The position numbers and the translations under genes are program-made. A stretch of 64,000 bases of DNA from Owenia fusiformis. Its lineage: Eukaryota. Where the stretch lies: assembly GCA_903813345.2 (NCBI GenBank), contig CAIIXF020000001.1, positions 15,872,001 to 15,936,000 of the forward strand. The letters run 5' to 3'. Below the pieces are notes generated by a model. The model was not told the DNA's origin. It ran no database searches and saw nothing but the letters and a program-made list of their open reading frames with translations. Positions 18,901 through 58,620 of the stretch are shown here, piece by piece. Positions within the stretch are counted from its first letter, which is position 1; each line of letters starts with the position of its first letter.

Positions 18901-21900
18901 TTAATCTTTTTTGTTTTCTATTGCTTTGGCACCGTTCTCAGTCTCTTTCTTTAACTTCTCTTCTTCCTTTTGTTTCTGTTCATCTACTAAAACCTTCCAT
19001 TGTTTTAAATTAGTGCTGCAAGAAAAATTACCATCAGTTAAAAAATGAAGTTTGTAATGTGTCATATTACTTGATAAACACTTAAACAATTTAATATTAT
19101 CATAAACATCTGGAAAATCAGATTACTCCTTTTAATTTTAGATAAAGACTATTTGAAAAATAAAGTTTCCTTATCATGTAAAAATTACTACTTCTACTTT
19201 GTTCGATGAAAAAAAGAGTTATTACTCTTGTCTCATATGGGTACAATCTTTTTGGGACACCCTGTATATGAATTCATGTAATTGGCGTTTTGTTCTGTTC
19301 AAGTTGATTTGATCATGTTTCCCTTTCTACTGTGTCATTAAGAAAATTCCAGTTTCAATGGCAGTAATAACATCAAAGGGGATTCTCAACAATCTTGCAT
19401 TCAAATCAGATTTGTCCTTTTAAAATAGTTTGTAGATATTTATTCGGAAGTCTGATTTTAAAAAGCATATTGTTTTGATAGTTCCGTATTATCTAAGTAA
19501 TGCAAGTTGAGAAGTTTTATTGCTTATCATGCTTATTGAAGGTAACTGTAAAAACTTACTTAGCTCCATCCACCATTGGTTGTGTACCTGGTAGTAGGTT
19601 GGCCAGGAGCTCATAACATGGTAGGCATATGCCAACAATGAAGCCCACCTAAAATACAAGCACGGACATTAAAAAACAAATACAAATACACAAAACTAAT
19701 TTCTTATAATATTTTGTTCAAGTGGATGCATCTGAAGCATTTTAGATTCTGTTCTGACAATTTATTAGTGTTAGAATATAATCAATTGATGCATATACGT
19801 TTCAATTACATACGTTTTCCTTCCAAAAGTTTGTATTCTAAGTAATTGTTAACGTAATTTTATTCATTAGTAATAGCAATCTTAAGCAATTAATCCATTC
19901 TATTCACACTTTTAATTAGTTGTGCAAAGAGTGATTGCGGAAATGCATACGTGTTCGTCTTCTGTTAAAAAGATTGCTTGGAATGCAGGGAATTCGTTTC
20001 CTCATGACCGTTGTACTATATCTAGTAGATGTTCTCTTTGTCTTTACCTTAATGGTATGTGACACTTAATTAGGACAGTTCTTGGCTTATCTTAAGGTGG
20101 ATTCCGGTTATGGCATTGACCCGGGGTATTGATGGTTCAGAAAAAGGAATCAAAACCTGCCTAAGATTTCTCCTGATAACCACTGTGAATGATTGTGTTT
20201 TATTGTGAATACTAGTACATATATCTAGAACTATTCCTTATGTGAAGATCACTGTATTGTTTGTTTATAACTAGACTCTGCGCGCAGGGTAGAGTATTGC
20301 TCGTCATTTCTAATTTATTCTTCAACCTGCAATTCTGCATTGCAAGGATCCGCAGTATGAAAGAAATGTTACTTGGTTTTGTGGTCTTAGATTGTGATAA
20401 CCGTTCCAGAATGATAGGGACGGATGTATGACCCATTGTTGCTGTTGTTGAATTTTGTGTATTTTTGCCACAGAAAAAGTGAAATTTAAAATGTAAGTTA
20501 GCTAGAGTGACATACTTGTCGTTTTCTTATTTCCGCATATGTATGATTGTAATTTTAGTGATCTCACTTATGTATCGTTGTGAAGTCCGAAAATAGCACT
20601 GATCGAATCCGAGCACTTATTTTATCTTAAAAAGTGTATAGTAAAAGCACTAAATCTATTTTACATTGGTTCTTAAGTTTATTTGCCATAAATTGTTAAT
20701 ATATAGCTAGTTAGTAATTAAATAGTAATTTTAAGCAATAAAACCAACATATTCACACTATCAATTAGTCGTGCAGAGAAAATACAAATTAGTATGTGTT
20801 CCACTTCTGATAGAAAGATACGTATCAATTTCTATCTCTCTAGTTTATATCCAAATATTAGTAATACCGCTTGCTAAAAGTTGCAATATTTTAAAATAGC
20901 CTATAAGCCAATTATGTGGCCATATATCGACCCCAGTATGTTGCTCTTGAGCAGGATTATTTGGTGCACAAATTTTAGATTTTGTATGGTGGTTAGTAAT
21001 TCACACTGGCACTCTTATCATAAAATCCTCCCAGAAAAGAGCACGTGAGACAGTGAGAAGTATACCTCCATCATCGGTAACTCATCTGATTTAGTCCGAT
21101 CCATCATTGTTATTGGTGTTTGACCCTGATTCTTTTCCTCATCGCCCTGACAATGTATAACCCAATCAAATTGTTTTAAACTCAATGTGATGACTACAGC
21201 ACCACATATACTTGTAAATAACATCATGTGTATCGATCATGATGCACTCACATCTTCGACCAGTTGAAAAAACTAAACAGTAGTCATCGGTCAACTGAAA
21301 CATTGGTCAACTGAAAGACCTAAACAGTAGTCATTGGTGAACAACATGCATTCATAGTACGAATACTACACATCTGCTTTGGTCGACCACAAATTACAAT
21401 TATATTTTGGTAATTATAACATGTTAGTCTCATTGAAGTCGAACAAAAGCAAATGGTAATATTTATAACGATCACTGTATCATCTACCTGACTCTGCGGT
21501 AGCTCATGGGCTTTGTCTCGATCCATCATTGGAATGGGTTGGTTTCCTTGTGCCTTCTCTTCATCACCCTATATAATAATATGATTAGTACGACATAGTA
21601 TTGTCTTTATATCTAGTAATTATACTTTTAAACATTGTAAATTGTGATTTCTGAAAGGAGGAACACTTTAAAAATCAAAATCAAGTCTTTATCATGCATG
21701 TAGTGAAGAAAATTGAAATACAAACAAAAATAATTGACAGCCTTTAATATTTCATTTCAGGAATGCATGACTAACTTTCACAATGTCTGGTTTTTAATAC
21801 AAGTATAGAAGTGGATTAATTTTGTCTGCGATATTGTTCTTCAAACATAATGCCTGTCGTTCTGTACCACTGTACATAAATATGTGTCAAATGAAATACA

Positions 21901-24900
21901 CGTTTTAAATACACTGAAACATTAACAGCACCATCGTATAGCAGCCTACAACTGAACACAACACAGCAACTACGTATACACACAATATTTCTGTTCGGTT
22001 GCACATTTATCTAACCTGCACATGCAAGAATGTATGGCCATTCAAAACGCTTTGCGTTTTTGTATTTAAAAAATCAAGATTTGTCAGACTTACGTCATGA
22101 AACGTACATTGAGATTAAAACAATTTCAAATAATTTGACAGTTGGTGCAGATTTAACAAAATGCTAGCAACAGTCCTGTTACCTTTGGAACACACTTTAT
22201 GTTTACGAGTTCTTTGATCCCTAAATTTTAAACACAATCATGCAGAACTTTTTGAATGGCTCCAGCATATCACTCAAAAAAGGAATATCAATATAACAAT
22301 AAGATTGCACTTAGAAGTCAATTAATTTAAAGTTCACATACTACAGAAAATGATGTATTTTGTTCAGTAACCCATCCCCATGATACAGCAATTTTGCATT
22401 TTGCGCCCATGCTCATCTTAGATATCAGATAGTTTTATGCAAAATATACGAAAATAAACGTTTCACTATCAAATAAGAAGATCTGTCTTTAATACCTACG
22501 TTTCTTATACTACACTGTTTTAACTATAAATGGTCAATACACATCTATTACATATAAAGCAAACCTGGCACCAAAATTCCTCCATAATAATAAGGACAAG
22601 TTGCTTCTGTAGGTCCCATGGCTTGTACATTGAGCAAAGATCAGCTGCTGTCATGCTGATACCCATTAGCAATTTTCTAGAAGCAGGTACAACATGGATA
22701 CAACATAACTAAATCATTAACTACATGGTTCTAACAACAAAAAACAGAAAATATCTCCTGAAATACCTCCTGTTGAAGAACCACAATTTTTGTTACGTCG
22801 AGTCAGTATTGACATTGTTCTGATTCCTATTCGCAAATCGCTCGAGTGCTTTTTGAGGTTATTGTGGATTTTAGCAAGGTGCTATTTTTAAGTTTTATTT
22901 TAGATTTAAAGTGTGCGCCAAAGTTTAAAACTGCGCAGGCGCACCGCTCTCGCTAACCTATATAAAGCGATTACCGAGTACAGGCTTCAGAGGTAAGCCA
23001 GGAAGGTGAACAATCTTCGTTCCGTGTTGATTCCCCGTATAATCGTAACCAAGTAAGTTTCACCATTGAAATTAAAAATTACTATTAGATATAATTTGTA
23101 GATGTTATTTATGAAGCTATTGAGTGTATGCATCAATCAAATGGCTCATTTTAAACATATCAAAAGTATTTGTGTTTTGTTTCCCAGGGAATTGTATTCC
23201 CATATAGTACACACATAAATAGTGTACATTATGTACTTGAATAGCCTGGTTTACATAAATTGAAGGGCATGCTGATTACATGCACACGAGTACATGAATG
23301 AAGGCCTGATATTGATATAGCTTGCATACCTAAACAAAAAATAAACTCTTCTAATCCCCTAATGTAAACACGGCGGTATACGTAGCCCGATTTATCGGGG
23401 GCTTTAAGGACACCTGTTTAACTCTATTATAACTTTACAATTTCCAAGGGATTTAACCAAATTTTGAAGAAAGCATCAAGAAATGTGATATTACAGTATC
23501 AACGTATTAAAAACAGTGGTTCTGCAACAGAAGATAAAACCGTAACGGGAGGTATTTAGAATTTTTGGTTTGACACTAAAAATGTGTACAGTAAATAAGT
23601 GAGGAAATGTAACCAGAGCAAGACAAACAGTGTATGTGCGTTGCAGGGTGAACTAATATTTTTTGAGTTATTTGAATGTGGATATTTTGTATGTGGCCAT
23701 TGCGATGTCTCTGGTCATCATCATCTGTGAATTTCGAAACAGATATACCGTAAAACAGGAATTCCTTCAAACAGCCACTATATTGTATATGCATACGTTA
23801 AAGCGGATGATTAATTTTCAGAGTTTAACAGTTCATTCGCATTTTCCATACACATTTCCAAATTTGATATCACAAATCATATTTTGCTTGCCATTACAAC
23901 CACCCACTCTCTGAAAATTCCCATTATACATCGATCCCACCAATATTTACCCATTGCAATGTATACTATTACCATTTTATTGCAAATTGATTTCCAATTT
24001 TAAGTTTTATGATACGCCTTCTCAAACCGAAATGACCGAGGATCGATTAGAATAGGCGACTCATTTATTGGGATACCCAGTAGGCTTACCCTGTACATGT
24101 ACAATATAATAAGACTATTCCATCGGCTGTCTTTTCATAAGAAAACGCATGTATTTGGTGATCTCCAAAGGATGCACATTCTGTGACAAAGGCGTAGTAA
24201 TATATAATATTCACATAGATACTCAAAGATCTCTGCAATATGATTATGATACATTATTTGTCTGGCTCAGATTACCATGAATATATAAACTTATAACAAA
24301 TACAATGGTTGCAACTGAGACAACTATTTGTAACAGCATACCAAGCAAGTAAAAGAGTCGAGTTTAGCAATTGATGAAAAGCATGGGATGAAGTAATGTT
24401 TGTGCCTATAACCAATAATGAAAAAGTGGGTATGTATTTACTGATATTGTAAGACATGATTTACCATTGCATATAAAAATCTAATGAAACCATGCTTCCA
24501 CGGCGCTAGATGGCACTGACCTACCAACTAAGTGTAACTAGGGACATATCAACGTTCATAGGGTTGTCCAAATAAGTCGATTACAAAAACATACATATAC
24601 ACGCCGCACTAAACACTGATTATAAGACATTGCACAAGTTCACAAAATAAAATGTAAATATGACTCTCTGTTGTGTTGTTCTGTTTGTTTTGGTTTGGTA
24701 ATTTGATTAACCATTTCACCACAGCACATTTATATTAACATTCATGACAAGGAGGTCGAGATGAGACATTTGAACATACAGCGTAGGATTATTTGAAGTT
24801 TGGCCACCGTTAAAACTATTTCGAGCACAAAAATGAGGAAATTGAATTCAAATGGTCATACCACGCATCATAATATGAAAAACACCAATTGCAGTGTTCT

Positions 24901-27900
24901 CTTCAGTATGTATCATTTATCATTTGTAAACTATTATAATGTCCTCTTTTACAGCACATTGACTACTGATGAGTTTGTGCTTTGCCGTGGTGTTATACTT
25001 AATCAAACCTATTCGGAAAACAAAGCCACCCAGAAGCCTATTGTTCGTAAGATATTTCCCCCTGCACATTTACACGTGTATGAAGCCAGCATGCGTGGTG
25101 ACAACATTTACATCACATGTCTAGCTAGATTTGAACATACAAATTATGCATGCATAGCTGATACCTGTGCGTAAAATTCTTCAAAAATTATCTTGACTGT
25201 GTCGACTTGCATATCCCATGGTTTGGTACTGGCACATAGATCACAGGCAGTCATCGCAATTGCCTTGGCAAATGACCTATTTGAAAGCACGGCCAAATAC
25301 AATAAAGCATTCACATTCTGTTTGTGTTTATTTGATCACTGCATTACACACAATAAATCAAACCCACTGGAATGAAGAAGTGCAGTGAGGAGAGATAAAA
25401 TGAAATGATAGACAGAGGTACGACGATCAGGGCAATCATGCAAATACACTTTTCTAGTTTTGAATACCTGGGCATAGAACTCCTCGAAGATGACCTTGAC
25501 TGTGCTGACCTGCACTTGCCAAGGTTTGGTGCTTGCACAAAGGTCGCTAGCCGTCATGGCTATAGCCTGTATCAACCGCCTAAGTAAGCATAGATATTGG
25601 AGAAAATAGCTCTTCAATTTGAATTTCGAAGTCAAAGTAAAAGAATACTACAGTTTTAACTTCAGGTTAGATAACGGAAGTTTCACAAGAGGAACACACC
25701 AGTAATATATAGTTTACTAGGTCAGAATCAAGACTACTAGAAAAGTATTTAGAAAGATACGCATGATTATAATTTTCTTATAATAATCTTTATAATACAA
25801 TTGTGTGGATGTTTACTTTTTTTAACATTTTTAATAAAAATGCAGAATGACACTAACAGACCGAGTTCATAATGAGTGCAAATAATTTTAGATAATAAAA
25901 TATAACTTTAATTTCACAAAATACAGATTTCACCTCAATTTATTTCATACTAAAATGATAATTTTATTAAAATATGTAACATTGGATCGAATTTCCATAC
26001 CTGTGGTCTTGGGCTTCCCATGAAAACTCTTTCTTTTCACAAAGATCCTTTAGTTTCGCCCTGTTGGGGAAAAACAATGCCAGATCTGTGGCCAGGATAC
26101 AATGTTTGATGTCACTTAAGACTTTCTTGTATTCATCTGATGTCAGGTGCTTGAATATATTGTGACCATCACGCTGCAAAATGGTGGAAATAGCTGAATG
26201 AATAATTGAAATAATTGAATTAAATAAACTTTTTCTTACCATTCAATCATTATATTTTACAGTTCATACATTTCTGATATAACATTTTGCTCCCCATATT
26301 TTTCGCAATTACAATAATATGAATTGAATACAGTTATTTGACATGCATCTAAAATAATAATCATAATCAAACCTTAGAACAAAACGCAAACCGGCTACAC
26401 AGGAATCAATGGTAAGATCAAATATGGTAGATTAAAACTCGAGGCTATATACAGTTGATCCTATATGTGTTTATTCCTTTCAACTTACCGGTTGATTTAA
26501 TATATGATAACATGACCAGATAAATTTTCTTTAGGCCAATAATAAATCAACATATACATGCAACACATTTCAGTTAATGACGAACACTTAATTCCCTATT
26601 CAACTGTGTACTACACCTGTTTTGAAATCAATAAATAGACTAAAAATTAACGTGTTAAGCAAACATTATGACAACACGTTTTGATGTATATGTAAAGGTT
26701 TTGACATTGTGGTCACTCTGTAAATGATTTTGCATTGCATTGCATTGGTTAAATAAAATCATTAAAGCATACCCCATTAAAGCATTCCCAACAATGACAA
26801 TATATAACAACACATGCGATGAATGGTACAGTTCTTACTTGTAAGATTGAGATGGTGTGATTAAAATGATGTTGTTCCATAGTTGAAGTGGAGTATATGG
26901 CTGCTAGGGGACTCGCAGTCTTCACCATGAAGGCATTTGTGTAACCCCGGTGATCAACATCGTGACAGAGGCATGCAACAAACAATGCCAGTCGCTGCAA
27001 CATCAAATATGGGTTCATGTGACCGATACAACAGCTCATGGTTACAACATATTTTGGGTGATACCCATGCATATGATTGGATGATCACACTGCATTTTCA
27101 TATTTCATACCATGGACATGAAGGAATGGATAGGAATGTTTAGGGAACTGGTCTCTCCAATTTAGTTTTGTTTTAGCCCAATAGGCCACACAAAATGGGT
27201 GAGATTACTGAGCCAGCGAAAGATTCCAAAACATTTCCTCAAGTTTATTCATCCATTTTTTCTCACATTCCATACGTGAAAAGTGTACAACATAAATATC
27301 CTGCTTCCTGGAAAGAATGCTATGAATTAGTAAGGTTGTGAGGTTGGAGTTTGGGTAACATAAAGCGTGATACCACATCCCATGCACAATTCGGTTATAC
27401 CTTGTGTACATGTACATTCACAATACCACAGGGTATGTACCTGTAGGATAGTCACTGTCATATTAAAGTGGTGGTGTTCCATAGTTGATGTGCTATATAT
27501 ATCAGCTAGAGGAGAACATGATTTCACCATAAATGAGTTGGTCTTCCCTCTGTGGTCCAGATCGTGGCATAAACATGCTACATACAATGCCATATTCTGC
27601 AAAAGTACTACAAGTGTGGGGAAATATTTAACAGACGAATGAGAGGGAGATACTTTAAGCCAGATTTTGGAGCGTTTGTCCATTCTAAAAGTATGCATAT
27701 ATGTTTTTCATACATCCTAAATTTTCGTATCATGTCCAGTGATACTTTGATTTGGTTAACAGTGATTCAATTAGGCTACTTTTCTGTTCTTTTTTCTCAT
27801 CGGATCTACAGCAAAAGACATGGAGCTGCAAAACACTACATAACATTCATGTAACATCGAAAAAACGCAATCAATTCAGCATTGGGACTGATTGAATCAT

Positions 27901-30900
27901 AGTATTTTACTAGTTTCATACAGCATAGACTAACTGTAGTTTACACGAGCTGATGATTTTATGTGCAATTGGGGGTACCACTTGTAAGTATATCAGGACA
28001 TGTCCTGGGTGTTCCGTATTACCGTCCATATTTTCGGTTATTTGCAAATGTTTATTTGTTATTTCTAAAGATAGTCTACTATAGTATAACTTATATAGGC
28101 AATTTTCCACAGTGATTATCGAGCAATCATTTTGCACAAGATTCCTGATTAATGACCTAATTATCAGGGTCAGTGAAATAAAATCATTACCTCAAGAGGG
28201 TTGAATATATTGTCCGTGGTCTTTATGACAGTGTACATGGCGTGGGCGACCGAGAAAGCATGGCTCCAATTGTGGTATGGCACATTACGATAATTCTTTC
28301 TCACAGTCAATGTGAACTTTATCAAACTGCTAATGTCGAACCTTGAAATAATAATATGCTAAATTGATATATAATTGATGATTGTTTATATGGTTAAAAG
28401 TTATTTCTGCATATCAAGAATTTGAAGACGTGCTAGACCGATTGATTTATGTGTATGTTATATAATATATTACAGAATGCACTGTTTGCACAGGAGTTTG
28501 ATTTTAACCCATGGTAATATTATAATGAACTGTACCTAAATAGAAAGAAAACTTGAAATTATTTTATTACAAATGCCTTAAATTCATTATAGTAAATGTG
28601 TATGTTTGTTAAAATGAAGAGACAATATCTACACGTCTAGTTTTAAAACGGAAAACATTTACGCATAAAGATAAATATTGTATTGGTCAAAAATACCAAT
28701 AATTATTGCTATTAAATAATAAATTAAGGTGTTTGTAACTACACTTTGATTACCCATATGAAACATTTATATATAACTTTAAGTACATAAATAATGCAAT
28801 AAAGCGCCCTAAAATTTTATTCTATGCACAGAAAAAGCTGATAAATCCTAAAATATAACTATTCACATTATACCTTTGGTCCCCCTCTTGGTCGCTATTA
28901 TGTGAAATAGTATAATTGAAATGTTTAATATTTGTGAAATCTACAACAATCCTTTAAGTAAAGGAGCATGGAAGGTATTGCAACAGATTTCAGACAGTCA
29001 TATGTTGGATTTTGCCTATTTTGGGAGGATTTGTACAGGTGCATATGCTAGGCCAATGCATAAACTCCATGACAAGCACTCATAAAGATGATAGAATAAT
29101 TGACTCTGAGACAGGAAGGGTGCAAACACCCCACCAACACGTTTTTCCTGAAATGTTGTCCTAATTTTCGGCCCTTTCCACCCCTGTCTCTTCAATGCTC
29201 GATGCATATATATGTTGCGTTTTGAGACAAAGTTAACCTCTTAAAAGGAAAATGGATTCATTTGGGATAAAGTGGAAAACAATATTTCCCATGTTATTTT
29301 CCCATAGGGAAAACTCATGCGATCCATTGTTTTCAGCTTGATTTTGGTCACCTATAAACCCCTGCATGAATCCTGTTTTCCTTTAAAGAGGTTAGCGGTG
29401 TCTCTAAACGCAACATACTGATGCATCAAACATTGAAAAACAGGGGTGAAAAGGGCTGAAAATCAGGACGTTTCAAGAAAATATGTTGTTGGGATGTTTG
29501 CACTATCCCTGTCTCAAAGTCCAAATCGTTTTATCATCTCTATAAGTGATTGTCCTGGAGTTAATGCCTAACATATGCACCTGTTCCAACATATGACTGT
29601 CTGAAATCTGTCGCGATACCTCCCGTGTTCCTATAAAGACAAGTCGCTTTTTACAATACTCATAATATTTATAGTAATTATGCTTGGGAGATTGCTCTAC
29701 TGGTCAAAATAGGTCTAATATCATTAAGACTAATCCTTCACCAAATTTGTGTTGCATTATCTCTCAAACAAATGGTAGGCATATGCCTCAGTAGTTAACT
29801 GTTAAAACAATATCAAACAACACCAGGTATGGATTACTTGGTGCTTTGCTAGAATTACTACTCTGTAAGGACAATGATTTGGTGAGAGGGCAGAAAAAAA
29901 TATATTTAAGATTCTACTATACCTTGACATGTTGAAGATGTCTTTGAACATGTACAGGACATACTGGGGCTTGTCTTCATTCAATACTCCCCATGGCGAG
30001 AATTCGTATCTAACAAATACATATGCATAGGATTTTAATGACAGTCATTGGGTGATTGTTTCTAGTATCAGTCAATTTTAATTTTGTAGGCGTTCTAGGG
30101 TTTGTTCCTAGTTTAAATACGCTTCTACATATCACTACAACATCTGCATTAATTATAGTAAGTTAATTGTATAATTGCGTGCGTTTCACAAAACTATGAC
30201 TCAGTTGTAAACTAAATGATAAGGAATCCAAATATATTAGAATTCTAATGTGTAACATCCTCCTAACGTAGGGTTCCAGATCTAGACATCATCCACTACT
30301 AGATTGAATGACATCCGGCACCTTGCGTTTGGAGGATGAATGTGCAAATAATGCAATATCAAGTTATTATACTGTAGTATTGGTTATTTCAACTCACAGT
30401 GTGACATCAGGTAGTGTTGTGGGTATGACTCGGTCTTTGTATTGAGAAAACTCATCTTCTGTGCATTGGCTATGGTAGGATAGTACTTCAAGTGCAACCT
30501 TGTGTTTTTGTTCAGACCGACGGATTTTATCATAAAGCTATAATGTAAATGCACTTCGGTTAATTCAAATCTGTTATGCAATCCTGAATGATGGGCGAAC
30601 ATTGTTTCTAATGCGTTGGATCATAATTGGGGTACTTGGGTTTGTTGACTTGTTTCTTGCCTTCGTCTTAATACACTTGGGTTCTTCTTATGTCACTGTG
30701 CTAACATACATGTACCATATAAAGTGAAACCGGTAGTGACTGAATTACTTCTTCTGTTATTTTCTGTTTTAATAATCATTTTATAGATATTCATGATTTT
30801 ATTTATGATTTTCTGTCAGTTGCCTGGGGATTTAAACAAGAAACTAGTTGCAACGAAATGAAATCATCTTATGTTTTTTATTAAAATGTTATTACAGTAA

Positions 30901-33900
30901 AACCTGCGAACAGGGAATGCTCTTGGGACTGGAGGAAAGTTTCCTTGTTCAGAGGTTTTCCCTATAGAGAGGGGCCGCACTTTCAGCAAACTCAAACTTG
31001 CCGAATAAGATTATTTGTATATATATTGATTGATTGTACAAATGCCGATTCCATACTTGGTTACATTCTCCCCATGTTGATTTTAGCTGCTGCTAGCGTC
31101 TGATGATGTCTAGTTGATGTAATCATTGGTATGATGTGTAGAGATATATTGCTAAGAACAGAATTTCAAGTTTCAGCAACCCTATTTTATATCATTGATA
31201 ATCTAGAAGTTGGATCAGTAAAAGATTTAAAGAGATTTGGCTCAACATGACCGTGTACTTACTATCTATCAACTCCATAAAACAATTGTGTCAGTCCCTA
31301 GATTATCACAACTGATTTGATGTAATTAGGTTTTTGAAAGAAAGAATTGGTGTCATGATAATAAGTAACAGATTAGTATTAGTTTTAAAATAAATCAGGG
31401 TAATTAACAGTGGGTGGGATGCTACATCATGTCAACAATTAGCTTATCTTAATCTCAATCATATTAATCCAAGCTTTTTATATTCAGATATTGGCTTAAG
31501 ACTTTCACACCTCTGAAAAATAATGGAATATACAGTGTCACCAATATTCCATATTCCTTGTTCACAGGTGAATTTTCATAATTTGCCCCAAAATAGTGTT
31601 CCTTGTTCCCTGTTCACAGGTTTTCCCTACAGAGAGGGTCCGTTAACATATAAGTCAATGGAAAAATATTTGGTTCTTTTGAAAAGCATTCCTTGTTCAT
31701 AGGTTTTCCCTACAGAGAGGTATTCCATCGGACAGGTTTTACTGTATATATATATAGCAACATCATACTTATGTCCGATCATAAGTTCGAATAATAGTTT
31801 CAAATATTAATTGTATGACATGTATATAAGACCAATGTTAACGCTACCAGGGGGAATCGGACATGCAGACCTTACTATTTATACATGTTATTCTGTCTTT
31901 TGAAAAATTCAACTTGTAATGTATATTTCCTAGTTTTTCAAAGAAATATCAATTTAAATATCAAGACGTCATGCTTTTCTCATACTTATAGAACCCAATG
32001 TGGCTGTCACTGGTCATTTATTAAAGCAGGAAAAAAATTGCTTCATGGATGACAAAATGTTTCTACTTTCCCGGTAAATGTAGAGTCTCGCACCATACGA
32101 ATATAATTTTAGGCGATCTGTCTGCATGGGGTGGAAATAAGGTAGTCTAGTACAGTGTAGTATGAAATTGAATGATATACATGTGTGTCAAATATCAGGC
32201 AGAAATTCCTTAAAATGACAAAGATATGGGGAAACAGAGTTGCCGTTTTTTACCACCCTGTATAAATCTAGAGATAGTAAATACAAGACGTAAATGATTA
32301 TGAGAACAGGATTTATGGTAGTAGCAAGAATTTCAAAATCATTATTTTCTTAACTAATGCTAAATTATTGGAAACACAATTGCATCAATATGAAACGTTG
32401 ACTATTGGCATACATGTTACATAACACTTGGACAACATAGATGTCAATCATAAATCGATGGCTAATACCTAATGATTTATCGTTATTGTTTACCTTTGCG
32501 TGGTGAAGGGCCAAGCCACAGTACACTGCAAACGTTTCGAATGACTCTTCGTCTGATTTTGTAAACACGCCATGTGTTTTATTCACCATTTGAACGACTC
32601 CTATTATGCTATATAGTACAAAATAATTTGAATTACATTGAGTACGATGAGTCGTTAAAACTTTGAAACCTATTATGCTATATGGTACAAAATAATTTGA
32701 ATTGCATTGCATACGATAAGTTGTTAGAACGTTGAGATCCTTTTGTACAGATACCATTCTGTTGTGTAAGAGTCAAATCATCTATTGTATAACCATTTAG
32801 TATGGTTCAATATTATCTAATGTCCAGGTTATAATGAAACATTTTGGGTGTTGGAATAAGGTAATGTACTGCTTAGTCTATTGTTTCAAATTATTGCAGT
32901 TAGTTTTTTGTTGGGCATTGTTAGTCTTTAAATATTCAAATATCTAAGACAACACTTCGATTCAACACAAACGAAATGATCTGAATATGTGATATCACAT
33001 GTAAGACAAATAATATGAGGACTTACTCTCGACTTACTGTCTGACTATTTGCTACTATATCTTAACTATTCACAATGTCAAATGGAACATATCAAAATTA
33101 CATAACACAATATAGGAATATTATTTTCTTACTTGTACTTCTTTTGACTGTAAGAGGAAAAGGGAAAATATAGAGAGATTACCTATTATGAGCAAATTAA
33201 AGCAGAATGTAAATGAGTACCAGTAATACAAGCATACACATGCAAAACATACAATAATTCATTTCAAACTAACTTGCTTGAACTTAGGCATATGGCGTTA
33301 CATATACGATATATAGCCAACACAATAAAATATTATATTTTATAAAGCAAACACTCAATTGAAGAAAACGTGGATACCACAGGGGCAAATATGCAAGAAT
33401 ATACATGATTTAAATATTAAGACCATGCATCACACACAATAGTTACATCAATATTCTTTCTGAACTTGTATCGAAAGTCAATGACAAGCCCTAAAATTTG
33501 AGGCAAAACTGAATATGAATCAAACTAAAACATGGATATAGTAATAACCAATAATAACCAGAGGATTGGCCTCATATTATTATTAAAATAGAATCCATAG
33601 TGCCTCAATAATATACCAAAATATATTAATCATAAGAATAACATTTCTAAATGAGCCATGCATTTTAAGAGCATAAAATATGATTAAATAGTTTGAAAAG
33701 ATATGACAAACTAAAATTTAATAATTAAATAAAATACTATGACTATTATAATGGGATTGTTAATATCACAACATACCTTCCACGAATATATATTGGCATA
33801 CACAGAATTGTTTTCGTAGTATAGCCTGTCTGGGCATCAACATCTCTGTAAAATAATATATAATATTATATTATAATGGATTATACTATATTATACTACA

Positions 33901-36900
33901 CTATATTATATTATATTGTATTATACTATACTATATTATATTATATGTCATGCCAAGATTGTGCATCAAATATCTGGTTTAGCTTATGGTCAGGTAATTA
34001 CAGTAAAAACAGAGTGATACTTTTTATTAATAATGAATTTACACGTTGACTCATCGAATAACCACAAAGATTATCTACTTTATAAGCGAGAAGTAATATC
34101 TACATCTGCTCTTGAGAACAATTATCAAAATGGACAGCTCTAAGTTGGTGTACTTATGTACCTGTTGAACCTGTCATCGCCATAAGCATCAGAGATGTTG
34201 AGAGTATTACCGGTAGTCGCTACATGACCAGCGATTCCCTTGTCCATTGGAAATCTAAAAGTAATTGAATTGCATGATTAATAATTGTAAGATCAAAAAA
34301 TTAAAAACTATTATATATGGGTTATCAACACAATGAATAATCTTGATCAAATGATATTTAATCATAAAAACTGTTCTTTTCACCACAAATGATAAGTGAA
34401 GTATAACAGTAGTGGACAATACAACAAATAGATATAGGTGAATGATAAGGTTCACGTTCTTGCTTTTAATCATCGACTACAAATGTAACACCATTTCATT
34501 GAAGTAATGTGTGTACAGACGTCTCGTATTCAACCATATCACAGGATATGCCGCAATACATTATTCATGTACAATATTGATAAAGGATTGATTTCAACAA
34601 CTGACAATGATTGATCAATAAAATATAGTGTGGAATCAATATCGCTTTCATCTTCATGCCATATCTAGTAAATAGACTACGTGTATAACAGACGCGTTGC
34701 AATGGTTGACCCTGGTTAATAGATACCCTTAACCCTCAGTCACATAATATATCGGAAGCACTGGTACCCACCTGGTTATAAAGACGTAACGTAACTTGAC
34801 AAAATGGATAAACTTCCGTCGGAGGAGATATTGATTTCATAATAGTAACACCCAGTTACTGAAAAACTACTTATCAGTAACGAGCAAATATATCCAGCAG
34901 CTTCAATAATCAAGTGAGAATTCCCTCACTTCAGCATCCAGGACATAATTGGATACAAATCGACCTCTTTCTTGGTGCAATAAACATTTCCGCCGACGGA
35001 AGTTCATTCATTTTGTTATGAAGACGTTGCGTCTTTATAACTAGGTGGGAACCAGTGGTAAGGTCCACTTTTAGCAATGTCAACAATTTTACACTGGGTT
35101 TTCTGACTAGAAAAGATGGCAGGTCGCAAATACAGGTAGTATGTTAAAAAATTACATACAAATGAATATGACTATCATTCCTGTATCTTTTAGAAAGCAA
35201 ATGTTAACTAGTAATCTGAACCTGACCTAATTTCTTTTTGTTGTCCATCTACAGGCTGAGCACCCAAACCGTTGCCTATATCAAATATCCGAGCGTATAA
35301 TTCTTTTGTTTGGTTGTCAACCAGGAACAGTGATGCTCTATCAGCATTTACCAATTTTTGAGCAAAGTTCTGAAATATAATTTTTAACAGTTTACTTATT
35401 TATCTATTTATTTATTTACTATACTGTCCAGTGTCCAACCTATGATACAGTCTTATCAAACTCCTCCTTTATATCATTTTACATTTTGTAGGATGAAGAA
35501 CATCAAAATACTCTCTTATTTTGAAAGCGAAATCGTTTGTATATTATAAAATACCACTCTATACGAATCAGTATACTGTTAGGCAATTGCAATTTAAACA
35601 GACGAATGAAATATTCTTAATAATAATAATAAAACTATATTCCACTCACCATAATTTTCATGATGACTGTGTCCATGCTGACTATATCTTGGAATATCGA
35701 CCTTAAAATATAGTTATATAGAGTTGTACATATATCTAGATTAAGCCAAGTTTTAGTTTTTGATATTACAGGTGAAATAAAACCAAACATAACAATGTTG
35801 TTACAAAGAATTATTTAATATATATTTTGAATAGGGGAAAACATAAAAATTTACATGTAATAAGAAATGTCAAACCAAAAACATGTTTTTCCGACTAACT
35901 TACTTAGTGACTGCGAGTAGAAACTCATTCAGCTTTCGCTGTTTTGTCATGCCGTGATACATCTGAAAGTAAACGATTTAGGTAAAAGTTACCCTTTGCA
36001 TTCACATGACTTTGCCTCTCAAAAGAGAGCTTCGTCTTTTAGGACATTTCAGCTGGACTCTGCGCATAGGGGAGGTAAAAATCATTGGATATCATTCAAA
36101 ACAATAATCACTTAGCTTTACAAACTAGTTTTATTTGACTATGAGTATTCTCGTTAAAATTTTACTTTATAAATTTAAACTTAGTAAACTCAATGCAAGA
36201 GAAATATCATGACTAACAGGAAACGCTTTACAAATAAATATACATACATAACTCACTCGGTGAAACATGATACAAACAAGAGTTACACACGTAAGATTCT
36301 ATTCAACAACTCAGAAATTAATTAGAAATGATAACCAAATCAATGTCTGTGACATGTGTTCTTTTCTAGGGTATAATTTATATCTGTCATAGTCTTTCAT
36401 TTAGATCTAATCAACAAATTGCTTTACGAATCATAATTCAGGATGAAACTAATCTTGTTCATTACATTCACTTAGGAAAGCTTTCATACGTTCACCTTTG
36501 ATATTTTCTCTTCAGGAAAAAATAGAACCACTATATAATTTGATAGGATATAAAACACTATATTGCCTAATTAATCATTTATTAAGCTAGGTATCATATG
36601 TTGAGAGTGATAGGTAAATAACATTTAACAAATAAATTCTCAGTTTTTAACTAATGATACTAGTAATGAAATATACATGAAGAATGTTAGATTGTGTAAA
36701 ATACTGGTTCAACCATGAATGCAATTTTTCCTCACAGATTGAATGCAAGGTTTGAGAATACATGTGCAAGTATAAGCATGGCCTGTGGTGCTACTTGTTA
36801 TCATTTACATTTTCTATGATGCAATATACATATTGTAAAATGAATGATAAATTGGAGTTGAATTGAAACTAGGGCAGTCAAATTCTATAGGAAACTTTTA

Positions 36901-39900
36901 GTAAGGAACCTTAAAGATCTATTTTCAGTTCAATAGTACACTGATCGAAATATGGAAGCACAGGTGTCCAAAAGGGGAAACGATCAAACAGTATTAAAAC
37001 ACGGATAGAAAAAAGTTTAAAGAGAACAGGCCGAAGCATATCCCCAGTATGCCAAAAATATCAAACTAAATGAAAGAATATCCTTTTGACTGCTGATATG
37101 AAATTATAAATATTTTATCATGCCAAAGGGTTATATATAATATCATAGTATCTAATAAATGATTTTGGGAGCCACGTGAGAAATATATTTGATGCAGGAA
37201 AATAAGAAAGTGGAAATGTTTGCCACTGAAATTTCCTTTCAATAGAAGAGTAACATGCATATTTCACAATCTTGTATGAATGAAATGTTCCATGCTTTTG
37301 TCGATATGGAGTGTTCTAATGATGCTTGAATCATGGTTTGTGCATAAACATTGTTTCTTTTGCACGTTAGATTATTATAAGGGATATTGGGGGTTGGTCC
37401 TTGTGGGTTATATGTTCATTTTTCTAGTGGTTTGTAATACTCTCTGATCTTCCCCTTTGTCAATTGTGCATACATATTTACATCCATTACTATAATGACT
37501 GCAAATCTTGATTTCCACATTACTCAATTTAGAGGAGGTGCTTGCATCTATACATTGATTAATATGTAAACAACGACATTTAAACATAAACAACATCCAT
37601 ACAACTATAGCATGTTTAAGATCATGACTACATTGTATATCTCTTGTGGATTAAATATCCTTATCACATCGAAATACCTCCGCATTGTAGATTCCAAAAG
37701 CTCCCCATACCAGTATACTGTTACAAATCTGCCAAATATATGCAAAAATTAGTTGGGAAAGCGAGCAGCAAGATAACCCAGGAGTAAATGTTCAAAGCCA
37801 AACTAAGGAGGAAAATAAAACAAAGCTCGGTTGTAACAAAAATGAAGCCAGGTCGGAAAAATTATAAAACCATATGAAAAATAAGGGGGTTGCAACATTG
37901 CTGATCCTGGAAAATGGCCAATTGCCACTATACGGTTTCATTATTTGGATTGACTATAAGTTAAGTATTATCATCAAATTGATAGCCATATGCAAATATG
38001 TGGGGAGGTGAGTGGCAATTGACTAAGTTGTTTCCTCCCTAACTGAGCTTTGGGGTACCACAACAAATACCATCTACATAAGTAGAGCTATTTATTTCAA
38101 TCCTGGAGGATTCTGGGTTCCAGTAGAATGCGCATTGTGGTTTCTAAATTGACCTTGACATTTTACCTCAGCACTAGAAGTTGCTACTCCACCCCACATC
38201 AAAAAACTGCTTGTAATCTGGAATAGATGCAATGTATTACAATACAGTAAAGTGTTAGCACAACACAAAACTTATTAGTTATTTCTACAATGTTAACAAC
38301 ATTATTTCTAGGAATCCATGATAGCCGACAGATGAAGAGCGCCATTTTGGAACATAGTCCCTCTTGCTTGAAATGGACAGTTGGACATTAGAACTCACTT
38401 AGTTATGTATTTATGTAATCATTCAAAAGTGATCAACCTGTTTTGAAAAGCGAACTTACTACACAATTTGATGATTTGATTGAAAGATAATTTGAAAATA
38501 AGGATGTTTGATATTCGTCAAAAATTCCCGGAACATCGGAATAAAGTTCATCGATATTTTGAGCCACTGTCCTTCTCAAAGCAATAATAACAATGTTTTC
38601 GCTAACTCCTATATGCGGCTAATATGGTCACCGGTTGAAGCCAAGCACTAGGGATGTATTTTAAGCAAGAATGCATGTAAAGGCCTATGAGATAAAGCGG
38701 TAGAACAAACAAGGGGAAATTAGTCTGATTAAATAGTAATGTGCAATCATTACTAGTCAAAGAAGCTGCATCTATTGAAGTTTTTCATGTATCACCCTGT
38801 TACAAAAGGAAAATATATAGTTAGTTGGAAAAGACGGCTCATTATAAAGTAAATTCGTGTAATTATGAATGTAAGTTCCAAGCTTGTTATTGTACTAACC
38901 GAGCCTAGCACGTCTACGGGATCTACACCTAAAGCGGCCATTACCTCTTGGCATGTTAATAGCACCGGGCACCACTGGAGGGCGCTAGACGTCACCTGGT
39001 GGAGAAAACTCCTCAGTCAATAACTAGCACAACATGCAAAGCTTGGTGCACAACATCTAGCATTCTCAAAATACACAAGTTTGTCATACACTAGTACATT
39101 TTCAGAATCTGATATATGTTGAACACTTAATGCAGGAGAGCCTAGTCGATATATTAATCAGCCCCGTGAAAATTTGAAAAAATAAATAAATTATTTTGAT
39201 ATTCGAAAATAGAGGTAAAAGTGCTATCTAATCCTAGAAAGGTATATTATAAAGACGACTGATGAATGACAATATTATAGTCATCAATTTGATATTAATC
39301 AATATCAATTAATATTAATCACCAAGCCAATGGTTGCAAATGAAACACGAATCAAGAGAATGAGAACTTTTAACATATATTTAAAGTAGTCTAATCAAAG
39401 AATGGTGTGAAGTATAATAAAACATTATATATATATGTGATGTATATATATTATGTATAATAAATTCATTAGTTGATTGTGATATTTGATAACATAGAAT
39501 TATCATACACCACCATTGCTACTACGAGGGTTGTCCCAGAAGTAATGCACTATATGCTCTAACTTTATCAATAATTGATATTTTTTCATGAAATTTTCAG
39601 TAAATGTTCCTTAGAGACATTTTGATTATTCTAGAAATTTTCATGTTGACTGATAAAACTAATTTGATGTTATAATAAAATCAAGTTGGTGAGTTTGGGT
39701 AGGGCGGGGCAGGTTATACAGTCACGTCAAAAGGAATGAAAAATTGAAAATCTGAAATAATTAATCAACAAATACCATTTGATGTAGCTATGAGAAGTAT
39801 GCTCAAAAATACATTTTAAGATACTAAATTACTATGAGCACATCCTAGATTTAATGGATGTATATTGCACAGTGTCCCATTTCACATTTTCTCAAAATAT

Positions 39901-42900
39901 TGCCCTTTGCATGTTATGTACTTTTGATGCCTGTCAGGTCAAACACTCTCGGCAATTTCTTCCACTGTGACTTGTGGAGTTTTTGCCTCCCATGTTTGGA
40001 GTTGTCATACAGGGTCAAATCGTCTCTTTTAAATCTCTTCTGCCACCCCATAATTGTAGTTCTATCTGGTATATACTCCTTATATACTTTCTTCATGGTA
40101 GCATTGTTTTGCGTGGCTGTGAGTCCAAGTGAAGTATGAAATTAGGCCACCAAAGGCAAGGCCTTCTGTTTCCTGGTGAGAATTGCAGCCATTTTTGCAA
40201 TTTCTTGACTGTGACTGTATTTGAATTCGTGACTATTGAAATGTGGTATTATGACATCACAGTGCTAAATGTCATTATTCGTACTTGGTTAACATCATGC
40301 TGAATAAATTTAACAATTTCCCAAACATTTTGACCATTTAAAGGAAAGAAATATTAATCAAATAACACTTTAGATCTTTTCATAATTAGAAAAATTGGTA
40401 CCTGCCCCACCCACCCCTACCCCCATGTTGTTATAGCAACCATATTAAGACTTAATATTAATGTTGGATGCTGAAACTTCGTGATATAATAGATAAAACT
40501 TCAATTGTTATATACACAAAATTTCAGCTGAATTGAAGAATATTAAAGAAAGTTAGAGCATATAGTGCATTACTTCTGGGACAACCCTCGTATATATGGA
40601 ATATTTTCCAATATTCACCCATGATATTCTCCATCGCCTCATTGTGTGAAGAATTTACAAATAAGTTTTCACTATTTGGTTAAGAAAAATGAATCAAACG
40701 TTTTTTATAACTAACAACATTTTTCATTTCCAACAAATCAATTCGTTTTAGTTTTAGTTTTTAATTGTTATAATTAAGAAAGTGCATTGATTTTCGTAAA
40801 GAGTGCACAATATACCAGATATATGAACAGCGGTGTATAGGATACTGTATTAAATGCTGACCCCGGTACTTTGGAATGAACTTGTTACATAACTTAAGTT
40901 ATCAATTTAAAAAAATACTAAATGTATTAGTAGTAATACAGAAGACACTGACCTCTTCATCTTCGTCTGTGAATTGCTGGTTACCAGCATTTCTGTACAA
41001 CTCTACCACACCTGGAATTTAAACACTAAATGCAACTTACTCGTAATCCAGCACATTGGGCGGGTAAGGTTACCACTATTTGTGAGAGAGAAACAATTTT
41101 GCCTAACCAGTGTTCATTTCACACTCGTTTTCAGTTTTAGTTCAACAGAGTGTGAAATAAATACCTCCCCCCAGAAGCTTTAACACAATGTTACATATCT
41201 TTTTTGTCTGCATGATATATTAATTGTCCTTTAGCACTTAAAAAACTAGCTTTCATGGACCAACTCCACAAGAAGTTTCAGATGACTGGCTCAACTAGTT
41301 TTTATGCACAAATTTTCATACTTTTGAAATTAAGGGGTACATATTTACTTGACACCCTGTATAGTTCCTACTATAGTACTTTTTCTTTGTTTTTCTGGTT
41401 TTGTCCATCGCGTTTTCTGTTAAGGTTTATTGCAACTGATCAAGCTGAACAAAATTTGAATGTAATAAATTGTTCCATAACATCATGTTAAATTTTGAGA
41501 GGGTTAAAAAGTCATCATAGATTTTTAGATCTGTCATGATGTTAAGTCGAATCACATACCAATCGAATGTAAACATTCGCATTAATATCAGTTCGAGTTA
41601 ATAACATAATCAATCACTGTACTACGTACCCAACGTTGCAGAGTTGGTTTGTATAATAGGTTGCGCTAATACTGCTTGTGCTGTTTCACCTCCAACTGCT
41701 ATACCATCGGGAAACCTTTCATCCTACAACATGTGAGTCATAAAAAAAACAAAATCATCTAAATAAGGAAAAGGAATAGCTCACCATTAGCCATGAGCCG
41801 GTGAATAATATAGCCATGGACCGATACAAGACTTGAATGTATTAAAGGTACATTATTATCTAAAAGCCATTTCATGCATGATTGATGATACATAGTCAGG
41901 CTCAAGATCGAAAACAAGAGATCATTTCGATCACCCTTACGTTTCGACCATAATCCAACATAAACAAATATATATTTCTTATGAAAGGTCGATCCATACG
42001 TACCCCTAGGACCTCTGTGAGTCTAAGGGCCTCTTGAGTTTCTGCTATATAAGCTCCTAACGTTCCCCCATTGCCTATTCGGCCACTCCACACCGTTGAA
42101 TTTTTTGTGCTGCAATAATGAATAATTAAAAACCAATAATATTGCTATCAATTGTTTTACTTCTAGGATGTAAATTAAAAATTATACTGAAACAATAAGA
42201 ATGTATTTGCTTTGTTCGACAACTTTAATTATAGCTATTGCAGCATTATGTTTTGACCTTTAGTACGAGCCGACTATGTTTTCTAACTTAATTAATATGC
42301 GTCAATTTGCATACTTATTTGCTATCAATGTTGACTTACTTGTTAGAGTTGGGCTTGAAGTAATATAAATCCTGAAATAAAAACGTCTATATATCAAAAT
42401 GAACGTAATCGTACGAAATTGCATATCAAAAACTTACAATTGTGGAAATGGAACATAGAGTCATAAATATTATTCAGCTTCTGACTATGTGCTAAAAGGA
42501 TTATTATATTTTTGCAATTCCAAACAGGTTGATGAGGCAATTTGAAGAATGATGACTTTCATCACTAAGAGTGTACATTATGGTCTAATGGTTACTATGG
42601 TAATTTGCAATGACAGTGTATCATAATTATGAATAATTGTAAAGTTAAATAACCATATTATCTCACCCGCCCATTTTCATCCACGAGGTATAAATTAAAT
42701 CCATCGGCATTTATTGCTAAAAGAAGAAGAGAGAAATTACTACATTGCATACCTGTATACCTTTATCATCATTAAGCTAACATTAGTGAAAAAGCATCAC
42801 GTATATATAAAAGAAACGTCATATAAATCTCGACTGTTAGAATAAAAGTCACATCAAATATACATTAGAGGGGAAATAATGGCTTATCAATAACAAACAT

Positions 42901-57814: not shown

Positions 57815-58620
57815 TTTCAAATTAGTTTCAAATGAGCATGTAAATCGGATTGGTTTCTTCTTTATCATGTTTATTACGAATAAATATGCATGCAGGATTA
57901 TTTTAAATTGGAATACGCATGCGATTGCTTTCAGTTCAAGTTAGCATACACATGGGACTGGTGTCAAATTAGCATGTACGTGGGATTGTTTCAAATAAGC
58001 ATGAACGTGGTAATGGTTTCAGGTTAGCATACACATGGGATGGACTGTTTCAAATGAATATGAACGAATTGGTTTCAAATTAGCATAAACATGGTATTGG
58101 TTTCTAGTTAGCATGCACATGGAATTGTTTCAAATTAGCACGCTTGTGAGATTGTTTCAAAATAGCATGAACATGGTAGTGGTTTCATGTTAGCATACAC
58201 ATTCGTTCAAATTGGAAATTTCATGTGATTGTTTCAAATTAGCATATGATAGTTTCGAATGAGTATGCATATGGGATAGTTTTCAAATTAACATGTATGG
58301 TTTTGTTTCAAATTAGAATGTACATGCGATCGTTTCAAATTAGCATAAACATGGGATTGTTTCAAATTAGCATATACATGGGATTGTTTCAAATTAGTAT
58401 ATACATGGGAATGTTTCAAATTAGTATATACATGGGATTGTTTCAAATTAGCATATACATGGGATTGTTTCAAATTAGCATATACATGGGATTGTTTCAA
58501 ATTAGCATATACATGGGATTGTTTCAAATTAGCATGCACAGGGAACTGGTTTCGAAATGGCATGCAATCGGGTTGTTTTAAAGTATAGACATGTAATATC
58601 GTTTCTAATTTGCATGCATG
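57815..58620. repeat. 27-bp minisatellite (tttcaaattagcatatacatgggattg)n
   Basis: Near-perfect units at about 58330-58540 and degenerate units on both sides. It produces the LFQISIYMG / HVYANLKQS pseudo-ORFs. Confidence 0.92.

Follow-up and report, generated by a model that had tools for sequence, protein, structure and literature searches.

A 64,000-nucleotide stretch of AT-rich animal DNA from the annelid Owenia fusiformis (NCBI GenBank assembly GCA_903813345.2, contig CAIIXF020000001.1, positions 15,872,001 to 15,936,000; hereafter the window, with positions counted from its first letter) carries on its minus strand a cyclic-nucleotide phosphodiesterase (PDE) gene of the PDE10 type in which four exon positions are occupied by tandem sets of homologous exons. 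We propose, with a probability of about 0.7, that these sets are four clusters of ancient alternative exons and that splicing most likely picks among the copies of each. One gene would in this way yield enzymes that have their catalytic residues in common and differ in defined modules. The modules exchanged would be the last helix of the GAF-A domain (the 51-nt cluster), the HD motif with the H-loop (156 nt), the pocket helix that follows the metal-binding Asp (112 nt), and the M-loop (81 nt). An earlier note on this DNA had put the output of the gene at up to 36 isoforms, a figure that is probably best taken as an upper ceiling.

The four tandem clusters described in the earlier note were recovered in full by script. 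All ten copies (three of 51 nt, two of 156 nt, three of 112 nt in phase 1, and two of 81 nt) are preceded by AG, followed by GT and have exactly one open frame, and the copies within a cluster agree in length and phase. An all-against-all blastp comparison of 1587 minus-strand open pieces put the likeness of the catalytic-cluster copies far beyond chance (E values of 8e-31 for 156a and 156b, 3e-19 for 112a and 112b, 2e-11 and 8e-12 for 112c against 112a and 112b, respectively, and 3e-08 for 81a and 81b). In the same comparison the exons that lie between clusters had no duplicate, as the earlier note had also taken them to be single, and tblastn searches with every copy found no further or decayed exon copies in the 64-kb window. 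The 51-nt copies are weakly alike. Among 41 open candidates of 51 nt bordered by AG and GT, the pair scores were 36 for 51b with 51c and 30 for 51a with 51b, against 16 for the best unrelated pair; tblastn searches among the copies gave an E value of 0.14 for 51b with 51c and no match for 51a. The homology of the 51-nt copies appears to rest mainly on the variants of relatives, since the nemertean Tubulanus has three 51-nt variants that match the V, IT and IC types of Owenia one to one.

By homology, the gene is a class I cyclic-nucleotide phosphodiesterase, most probably of the PDE10 type (C. elegans pde-5 type). It extends from ~58.8 kb to 18.9 kb of the window and has over 25 exons. Its single-copy exon at 26173-26003 (57 residues) is 100% identical to an annotated Owenia fusiformis protein of 884 residues, P0002, which carries the GAF and PDEase_I families in precomputed Pfam assignments and has two GAF domains followed by the catalytic domain. 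Single-exon matches to GAF were weak; the GAF region of P0002 aligns with PDE5A and PDE2A. Pfam PDEase_I (PF00233) matched 156a at 4.3e-19, 156b at 8.7e-21 and the 112 copies at 5e-07 to 2e-06, and its curated cut-off was passed by five of the seven catalytic copies; 81a (0.0019) and 81b (0.16) fell below it, as expected for 27 residues. Both 156 copies contain the CHD.DHRG motif. Their best solved-structure match is PDE10A (E 4e-18 and 1e-20), which leads PDE2A, the next, by 12-20 bits and agrees with the PDE10 identity given to the gene in the earlier note. The catalytic domain of P0002 scores ~320-333 bits against PDE10A chains, and full-length PDE5A and PDE2A outscore these chains against P0002 because their alignments cover the GAF domains too. 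Orthologues are named differently, as 'PDE10' in some sources and as 'probable 3',5'-cyclic phosphodiesterase pde-5' in RefSeq.

The positions of the modules were read from an alignment of P0002 to full-length PDE5A (875 residues, chain 9lss_A). The 156-nt exon corresponds to PDE5A residues 643-694, including His653/Asp654; the 112-nt exon to residues 753-789, including Asp764 and the helix with residues 782/786; and the 81-nt exon to residues 790-817, with its last residue aligned to 817. With the H-loop of PDE5A at residues 660-683 and its M-loop at 788-811, the alignment places the three catalytic clusters where the earlier note had them: the first on the HD motif and the H-loop, the second on the metal-binding Asp together with the pocket helix, and the third on the M-loop and the invariant Gln. 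The 51-nt exon is the last helix of GAF-A, just before the linker helix to GAF-B (query residue 333 aligns with PDE5A 316). PMC3069055, which deals with a Q817A mutant, treats residue 817 of PDE5A as the invariant glutamine. At this position 81a has Gln and 81b has Glu. Of 216 motif matches in the orthologues retrieved, 114 have Gln immediately ahead of the clamp-Phe motif and 102 have Glu.

The many synonymous differences between catalytic copies that the earlier note remarked on were borne out. The proportion of differing synonymous sites (pS) between copies is 0.76-1.0, so that synonymous sites are saturated (28 of 33.8 such sites differ between 156a and 156b). The corresponding proportion for nonsynonymous sites (pN) is 0.20 for 156a/b, 0.15 for 112a/b, 0.25 for 81a/b, and 0.37-0.39 for 112c against 112a and 112b. 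The copies differ at 24-76% of residues, and over 80 bases of flanking intron the likeness between them is at background level. Unconstrained drift over such a time would have lost frame, splice sites and residues, and the copies have thus been maintained. Judged by these measures, they are intact alternative exons under purifying selection and not relics.

Owenia 156a is 88-90% identical to mollusc orthologues and the annotated 156b is 84-88% identical to them. An approximately unbiased (AU) test rejected 156a and 156b as sisters (p 0.0045); the tree itself, built on 51 columns, is without resolution. A V..Y signature near the HD motif of 156b recurs in Paralvinella P0020 and in two ENA genomic fragments. 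It is found in vertebrates and Lepidoptera too, and is therefore no clean marker of orthology.

Variants corresponding to those of Owenia were found in the proteins of other animals, where our counts refer to listed proteins, with at most 15 members for each 90% cluster of orthologues (the main Mytilus cluster, for instance, has 59 members and 15 of them were listed). The A type of the 112-nt exon, to which 112a and 112b belong, is found in all animals examined. It is joined by the C type, that of 112c, in Mytilus (A/C counts of 1/23), Crassostrea (1/13), Lineus (1/14), Tubulanus (1/11), Haliotis (3/10), pectinids (2/9), Mercenaria (2/6) and Patella (2/7), and the C type stands alone among the listed proteins of Ostrea (15) and Pomacea (9). 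A third type, F, occurs beside A in echinoderms and in the hemichordate Ptychodera (A/F counts of 4/2 in Asterias, 3/6 in Ptychodera, 3/4 in Apostichopus and 4/1 in Lytechinus). Only the A type was seen among the listed proteins of Branchiostoma, Hermetia, Daphnia, spiders, nematodes, Trichoplax, Lingula and Watersipora. Logan contigs whose length leaves no room for introns carry the A type in P0198 and P0396 (918 residues on 3.0-3.4 kb) and the C type in P0014, P0201, P0213, P0016, P0172 and P0174.

The 81-nt and 51-nt exons vary in a similar manner. Oysters have the Q and E types of the 81-nt exon at counts of 12/2 in one listed set and 6/8 in another, Lineus has two Q-type variants (13 and 2), and the E type is shown by most molluscs, Lingula and Lamellibrachia. 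Two variants of the 51-nt exon alternate in Crassostrea (14/1), Ostrea (10/3), Lineus (13/2), Haliotis (10/3) and Pomacea (8/1). In the isoform models of relatives, then, one variant takes the place of another at the 112, 81 and 51 positions, in several combinations.

The age of the 112 pair was addressed with a maximum-likelihood tree of 48 exon variants and 37 columns. Seventeen C-type rows, including Owenia 112c, form one branch with support of 98/96, apart from the A-type rows of the same species, and the members of this branch come from molluscs, nemerteans, annelids and a rotifer. The duplication that gave rise to the A and C types therefore predates the split of annelids, molluscs and nemerteans. 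Five F-type rows form a branch of their own (support 95/91), and Owenia 112a and 112b fall in the A group, where the tree has no resolution. For the 81 pair, the succession of Q type and E type seen in Owenia recurs in predicted proteins of a second annelid, Paralvinella, and of a pearl oyster, Pinctada.

In PDE5A numbering, residues 761, 764, 765, 770-772, 775, 779, 782, 785 and 786 of the 112-nt exon are the same in its A and C types. The two types differ consistently at 756 (Gln/Arg in A versus Met in C), 768 (Ser/Asn versus Met, the latter in 17 of 17 C rows), 769 (Thr/Ala versus Tyr), 778 (Thr versus Leu), 783 (Phe versus Met, with no overlap between the types) and 787 (Tyr versus Trp). 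The variants may differ in kinetics or in preference for cyclic AMP or cyclic GMP (cAMP or cGMP). For PDE9, PMC3069055 reports that the Q453E mutation raises the Michaelis constant (KM) 25-fold for cGMP and 2.5-fold for cAMP and takes the cGMP/cAMP efficiency ratio from 337 to 29 with the fold kept; it also describes the glutamine-switch idea as disputed. By analogy, an enzyme made with the E-type 81 exon would be expected to have a lower affinity for cGMP, as compared with cAMP. The shape of the pocket and the dynamics of its loops may be tuned by the other modules, and the GAF-A cassettes could act on the geometry of the dimer or on allosteric coupling.

For one of the clusters, a mechanism that limits the transcript to a single copy can be read from the exon lengths. 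In scripted joins, transcripts with one 112 copy and either 81 copy stay open as far as the normal stop, which lies in the last exon; two or three 112 copies bring a stop 33 bases into the second copy, and joins with no 112 copy meet a stop inside the 81-nt exon. Exactly one copy keeps the frame because 112 is not a multiple of three, and the exclusivity of this cluster is, at the level of the predicted transcripts, enforced by the reading frame. Transcripts with zero, two or three 112 copies would be expected targets of nonsense-mediated decay (NMD). The lengths of the 156, 81 and 51 copies are in frame, so another mechanism is needed for these clusters. Steric hindrance is an unlikely one since the introns between copies, at 191-2488 nt, are too long for it, and no U12-like 5' splice sites were seen. 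It is plausible that the 156 and 81 copies are mutually exclusive. The 51 cluster, as annotated, behaves less like strict either-or exons and more like tandem cassettes whose inclusion is optional, with two variants in tandem in 4/24 Mytilus and 9/13 Tubulanus models and the exon skipped altogether in 2/24 Mytilus and 2/15 Ostrea models. The mutual exclusivity proposed in the earlier note is thus upheld for 112 by the frame and does not hold strictly for 51, where tandem inclusion and skipping are annotated, the former in Owenia itself (P0183).

A candidate RNA pairing may contribute to the choice between the 81 copies. Its two arms, of which one lies between 112c and 81a and the other between 81a and 81b, are complementary at 20 of 21 bases (2 matches in the window versus 0.02 expected), and the pairing is present in both the minimum free energy (MFE) and centroid folds of 21040-22180. 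Such a pairing would place 81a in a loop and bring the upstream exon close to 81b; another possible effect is that it masks the branch and polypyrimidine region of 81b. The 21-nt pairing may therefore influence the choice of 81b, in favour of it or against it. An inverted-repeat scan for comparable pairings at 156, 112 and 51 gave only weak AT-rich or repeat-derived pairs.

The Owenia annotation, which merged RNA-seq and ab initio models via PASA according to PMC9977687, holds two isoforms that differ in the 51 cluster and in a micro-exon. In the 51 cluster, P0002 has 51c alone and P0183 has an extended 51a, 51b and 51c in tandem; the extension of 51a in P0183, by 15 residues, comes from an alternative 5' splice site (38900-38944, minus strand). 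Owenia probably uses all of its exon copies. A number of observations weigh against our proposal and have to be set beside the evidence given so far. Both annotated Owenia proteins use 156b, 112a and 81a, and a collection of 5.8 billion sequences, queried with 156a and not with 112b, 112c or 81b, holds no protein more than 90% identical to Owenia 156a. Three Owenia RNA-seq runs, of which ~6-12% each was read and compared, together with one DNA run, with 21040-41039, gave an exon depth of 0-0.82 and no exon junction; the gene is practically uncovered in them, with reads on intronic repeats only, and these runs therefore say nothing about splicing. The RefSeq XP models of relatives are computational and their underlying reads are not visible. 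The presence of the extra copies in relatives, for which the earlier note had proposed to search, is seen in the listed models for the 112, 81 and 51 variants and not for 156, as no relative's listed isoform set has two 156 variants and each listed relative shows one form. The candidate pairing at the 81 copies is AT-rich and seen in one species only, and whole-intron duplex energies for the 81 and 156 introns are no better than those of shuffles (z -1.0 to 0.3). Tandem inclusion of 156, 81 and 51 copies would stay in frame; the annotation shows it for 51, and two ab initio predictions contain it for 81.

Some of these observations would be explained if each Owenia cluster had a single functional copy and the others were relics no longer spliced in. 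The identical choice of 156b, 112a and 81a by both annotated proteins, the want of any protein carrying Owenia 156a in the collection and of any RNA junction are what this explanation would lead one to see. It is nevertheless improbable, since amino acids have been kept between copies whose synonymous sites are saturated, and AG/GT borders and an open frame have been kept in 10/10 copies. Moreover, the supposed relics resemble exons in use elsewhere: 156a is close to its mollusc orthologues at the identity given above, 112c belongs to a clade whose exons predominate in molluscs, nemerteans and other annelids, and in molluscs the 81b type prevails. Still less credible, to the point of being negligible, is the idea that the duplicated exons were produced by the assembly, through uncollapsed haplotypes or a mis-join. 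Nothing was found that favours it. Copies that differ at so many residues are not what such an error would leave, the proteins of other phyla point to a like tandem order of copies there, and contigs of the independent DNA run span both 156 copies (26263-27810), 112a with 112b (25058-25808) and the three 51 copies (37344-39256) at an even depth of ~10-21. The arrangement is therefore real.

A somewhat more serious alternative, although still an unlikely one, is that the three in-frame clusters (51, 156 and 81) consist of optional or additive tandem cassettes that are often included together. All three lengths are multiples of three, and for 51 the annotated tandem forms and skipped forms of Mytilus, Tubulanus, Ostrea and Owenia P0183 are of just this kind. 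For 81, the proteins Paralvinella P0020 and Pinctada P0209 have both units, Q then E, in the genomic order of Owenia. However, these two are 'hypothetical protein' predictions, no listed RefSeq isoform has two 81 units, and 241/243 proteins with the region have one unit against 2/243 with both. Proteins with more than one 156 segment or with repeated constitutive exons (P0001, P0184-P0187) were considered as evidence of tandem use and rejected: they consist of identical copies or a fusion (one has 1312 residues) and are for that reason regarded as artefacts of assembly or prediction. P0001, P0184, P0185 and P0187 are public predicted proteins, their sources being a sea urchin, a sturgeon record that bears a contamination flag, and metaclust; in them, whole PDE segments recur as identical tandem repeats. 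A doubled HD/H-loop or M-loop would, in addition, be expected to disrupt the compact catalytic fold. A choice among copies, joined by tandem use in the 51 cluster, thus remains our preferred account of the gene.

The coordinates of the exon copies, the candidate pairing arms and the neighbouring constitutive exons are collected in the table.

Table. Alternative exons, candidate pairing arms and adjoining exons of the Owenia PDE10-type gene, in the direction of the gene (positions in the window).
Feature	Position	Strand	Remarks
Constitutive exon before the 51-nt cluster	40953..41009	-	approximate borders
51a, V-type, last helix of GAF-A	38945..38995	-	in P0183; matches V-type of molluscs and nemerteans
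51b, IT-type	38167..38217	-	in P0183; counterpart in Tubulanus and Lineus
51c, IC-type	37678..37728	-	in P0002 and P0183; counterpart in Tubulanus
Constitutive exon after the 51-nt cluster	35903..35962	-	approximate borders
Constitutive exon before the 156 cluster	28191..28340	-	5' border approximate
156a, K-type, HD motif and H-loop	27441..27596	-	in neither annotated Owenia protein
156b, V..Y-type	26839..26994	-	in both annotated Owenia proteins
Single-copy exon between the 156 and 112 clusters	26001..26173	-	ends in phase 2
112a, A-type, metal-binding Asp and pocket helix	25468..25579	-	in both annotated Owenia proteins
112b, A-type	25165..25276	-	
112c, C-type, common across Spiralia	22565..22676	-	in the 17-row C clade
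Upstream arm of candidate RNA pairing	22106..22126	-	intron between 112c and 81a
81a, Q-type, M-loop, ends in the invariant Gln	21488..21568	-	in both annotated Owenia proteins
Downstream arm of candidate RNA pairing	21168..21188	-	21 bases separate its end from the 3' splice site of 81b
81b, E-type, Glu at the invariant-Gln position	21066..21146	-	
Constitutive exon after the 81 cluster	19560..19648	-	starts with the clamp Phe motif
Last coding exon, then stop codon	18904..19015	-	

Several other features of the locus were observed. The micro-exon, of ~15-18 nt (SQKKY..), lies at ~33135-33149 on the minus strand and is present in P0002 and not in P0183. A tandem duplication of ~70 nt at 32605-32720 (minus strand) comprises an intron end and the 3' splice region before the GAF-B exon at 32607-32494, and P0002 and P0183 differ at this duplication as well. 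A tandem 27-nt repeat at ~58290-58540 (minus strand) reads as KQSHVYANL units and, along the direction of the gene, follows closely on a 5' coding exon at ~58666-58776. The introns contain repeats that account for all RNA signal in 21040-41039. Inverted-repeat arms of 83 nt (39523-39605 and 40510-40592), 80% complementary, bound a segment of ~1.07 kb upstream of the 51 cluster, which has a DNA contig depth reaching the thousands and RNA reads in all three runs, with loose ends exactly at 39523 and 40592; this segment looks like a multicopy terminal-inverted-repeat element. Other high-copy intronic repeats, with very high DNA word depth, lie at ~22900-23410, 29000-29700 and 30890-31750. RNA reads on these other repeats end in unrelated sequence.

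A wider interpretation, which we put forward tentatively and at a little under even chances, is that modular splicing of the active site is ancient and common to annelids, molluscs and nemerteans, with the 112 pair possibly homologous to that of echinoderms and hemichordates. The system would vary nucleotide preference and regulation through the H-loop, the pocket helix, the M-loop and the change from Gln to Glu, with the GAF-A cassettes tuning dimer or allosteric coupling, and would have been lost in vertebrates, arthropods and nematodes. The alternatives would rebuild the catalytic pocket itself while all tested catalytic residues are kept, and the variants may accordingly serve as natural, selection-tested experiments on how PDEs tell cAMP from cGMP. 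For the evolution of splicing, the gene offers several alternative clusters in one enzyme gene, with a 112 pair that predates the divergence of annelids, molluscs and nemerteans. There is also a practical side to the arrangement, as the Owenia annotation misses most of the possible isoforms and ab initio predictions elsewhere wrongly string copies together.

Alternative splicing of PDEs is known mainly for N-terminal targeting and regulatory parts, and isoforms of vertebrate PDE10A likewise vary mainly at the N-terminus. Vertebrate PDE10A (3lxg and 2oun; Xenopus P0374 and shark P0376) resembles the Owenia gene in having two GAF domains and PDEase_I, and has homologous segments of 37 and 27 residues of the same length. 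It differs in having one form of each segment in Xenopus and in shark (one protein each) and in forming a very long branch in the 112 tree. A close comparison is with the RefSeq pde-5 sets of molluscs, nemerteans, echinoderms and a hemichordate (among them Mytilus edulis, Magallana gigas, Lineus longissimus, Tubulanus polymorphus and Ptychodera flava), which are orthologous and have alternatives at the same positions for 51, 112 and 81. Unlike Owenia, the listed members of these sets have no two 156 variants, and the extra A-type copy of 112 is Owenia's own. We found no published description of these exons in PMC and bioRxiv full text, although supplements cataloguing exons may list them; the earlier note, too, knew of none for PDE10. 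The data themselves are already public, because the alternatives stand in the RefSeq isoform models of relatives.

Mutually exclusive exons are classically represented by Drosophila Dscam1, with its RNA pairing of docking site and selector sequences, and by pairs enforced through frame and NMD. The Owenia gene has in common with such clusters its tandem homologous exons of equal length and phase, the frame-enforced 112 cluster, and the candidate intron pairing that would loop out 81a. It differs in that each cluster has only 2-3 variants, the modules form the active site of an enzyme, and the 51 cluster allows tandem inclusion. The Glu of 81b has a counterpart in PDE9A2 Q453E, where Gln likewise gives way to Glu at the invariant glutamine; that protein (PMC3069055) is a laboratory mutant in a cGMP-specific family, whereas the Glu form here is natural, widespread in Spiralia (102/216), and, in Owenia and oysters, one of two options open to splicing. 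The alternative oxidase of oysters, as described in PMC5589949, is another spiralian enzyme gene with a duplicated exon that is used alternatively, but it is a different gene with a single exon pair. Mutually exclusive and tandem-cassette exons are well known as a kind, and what is new here is the presence of several such clusters in the catalytic pocket of a PDE, their deep conservation, and a natural alternative between Gln and Glu.

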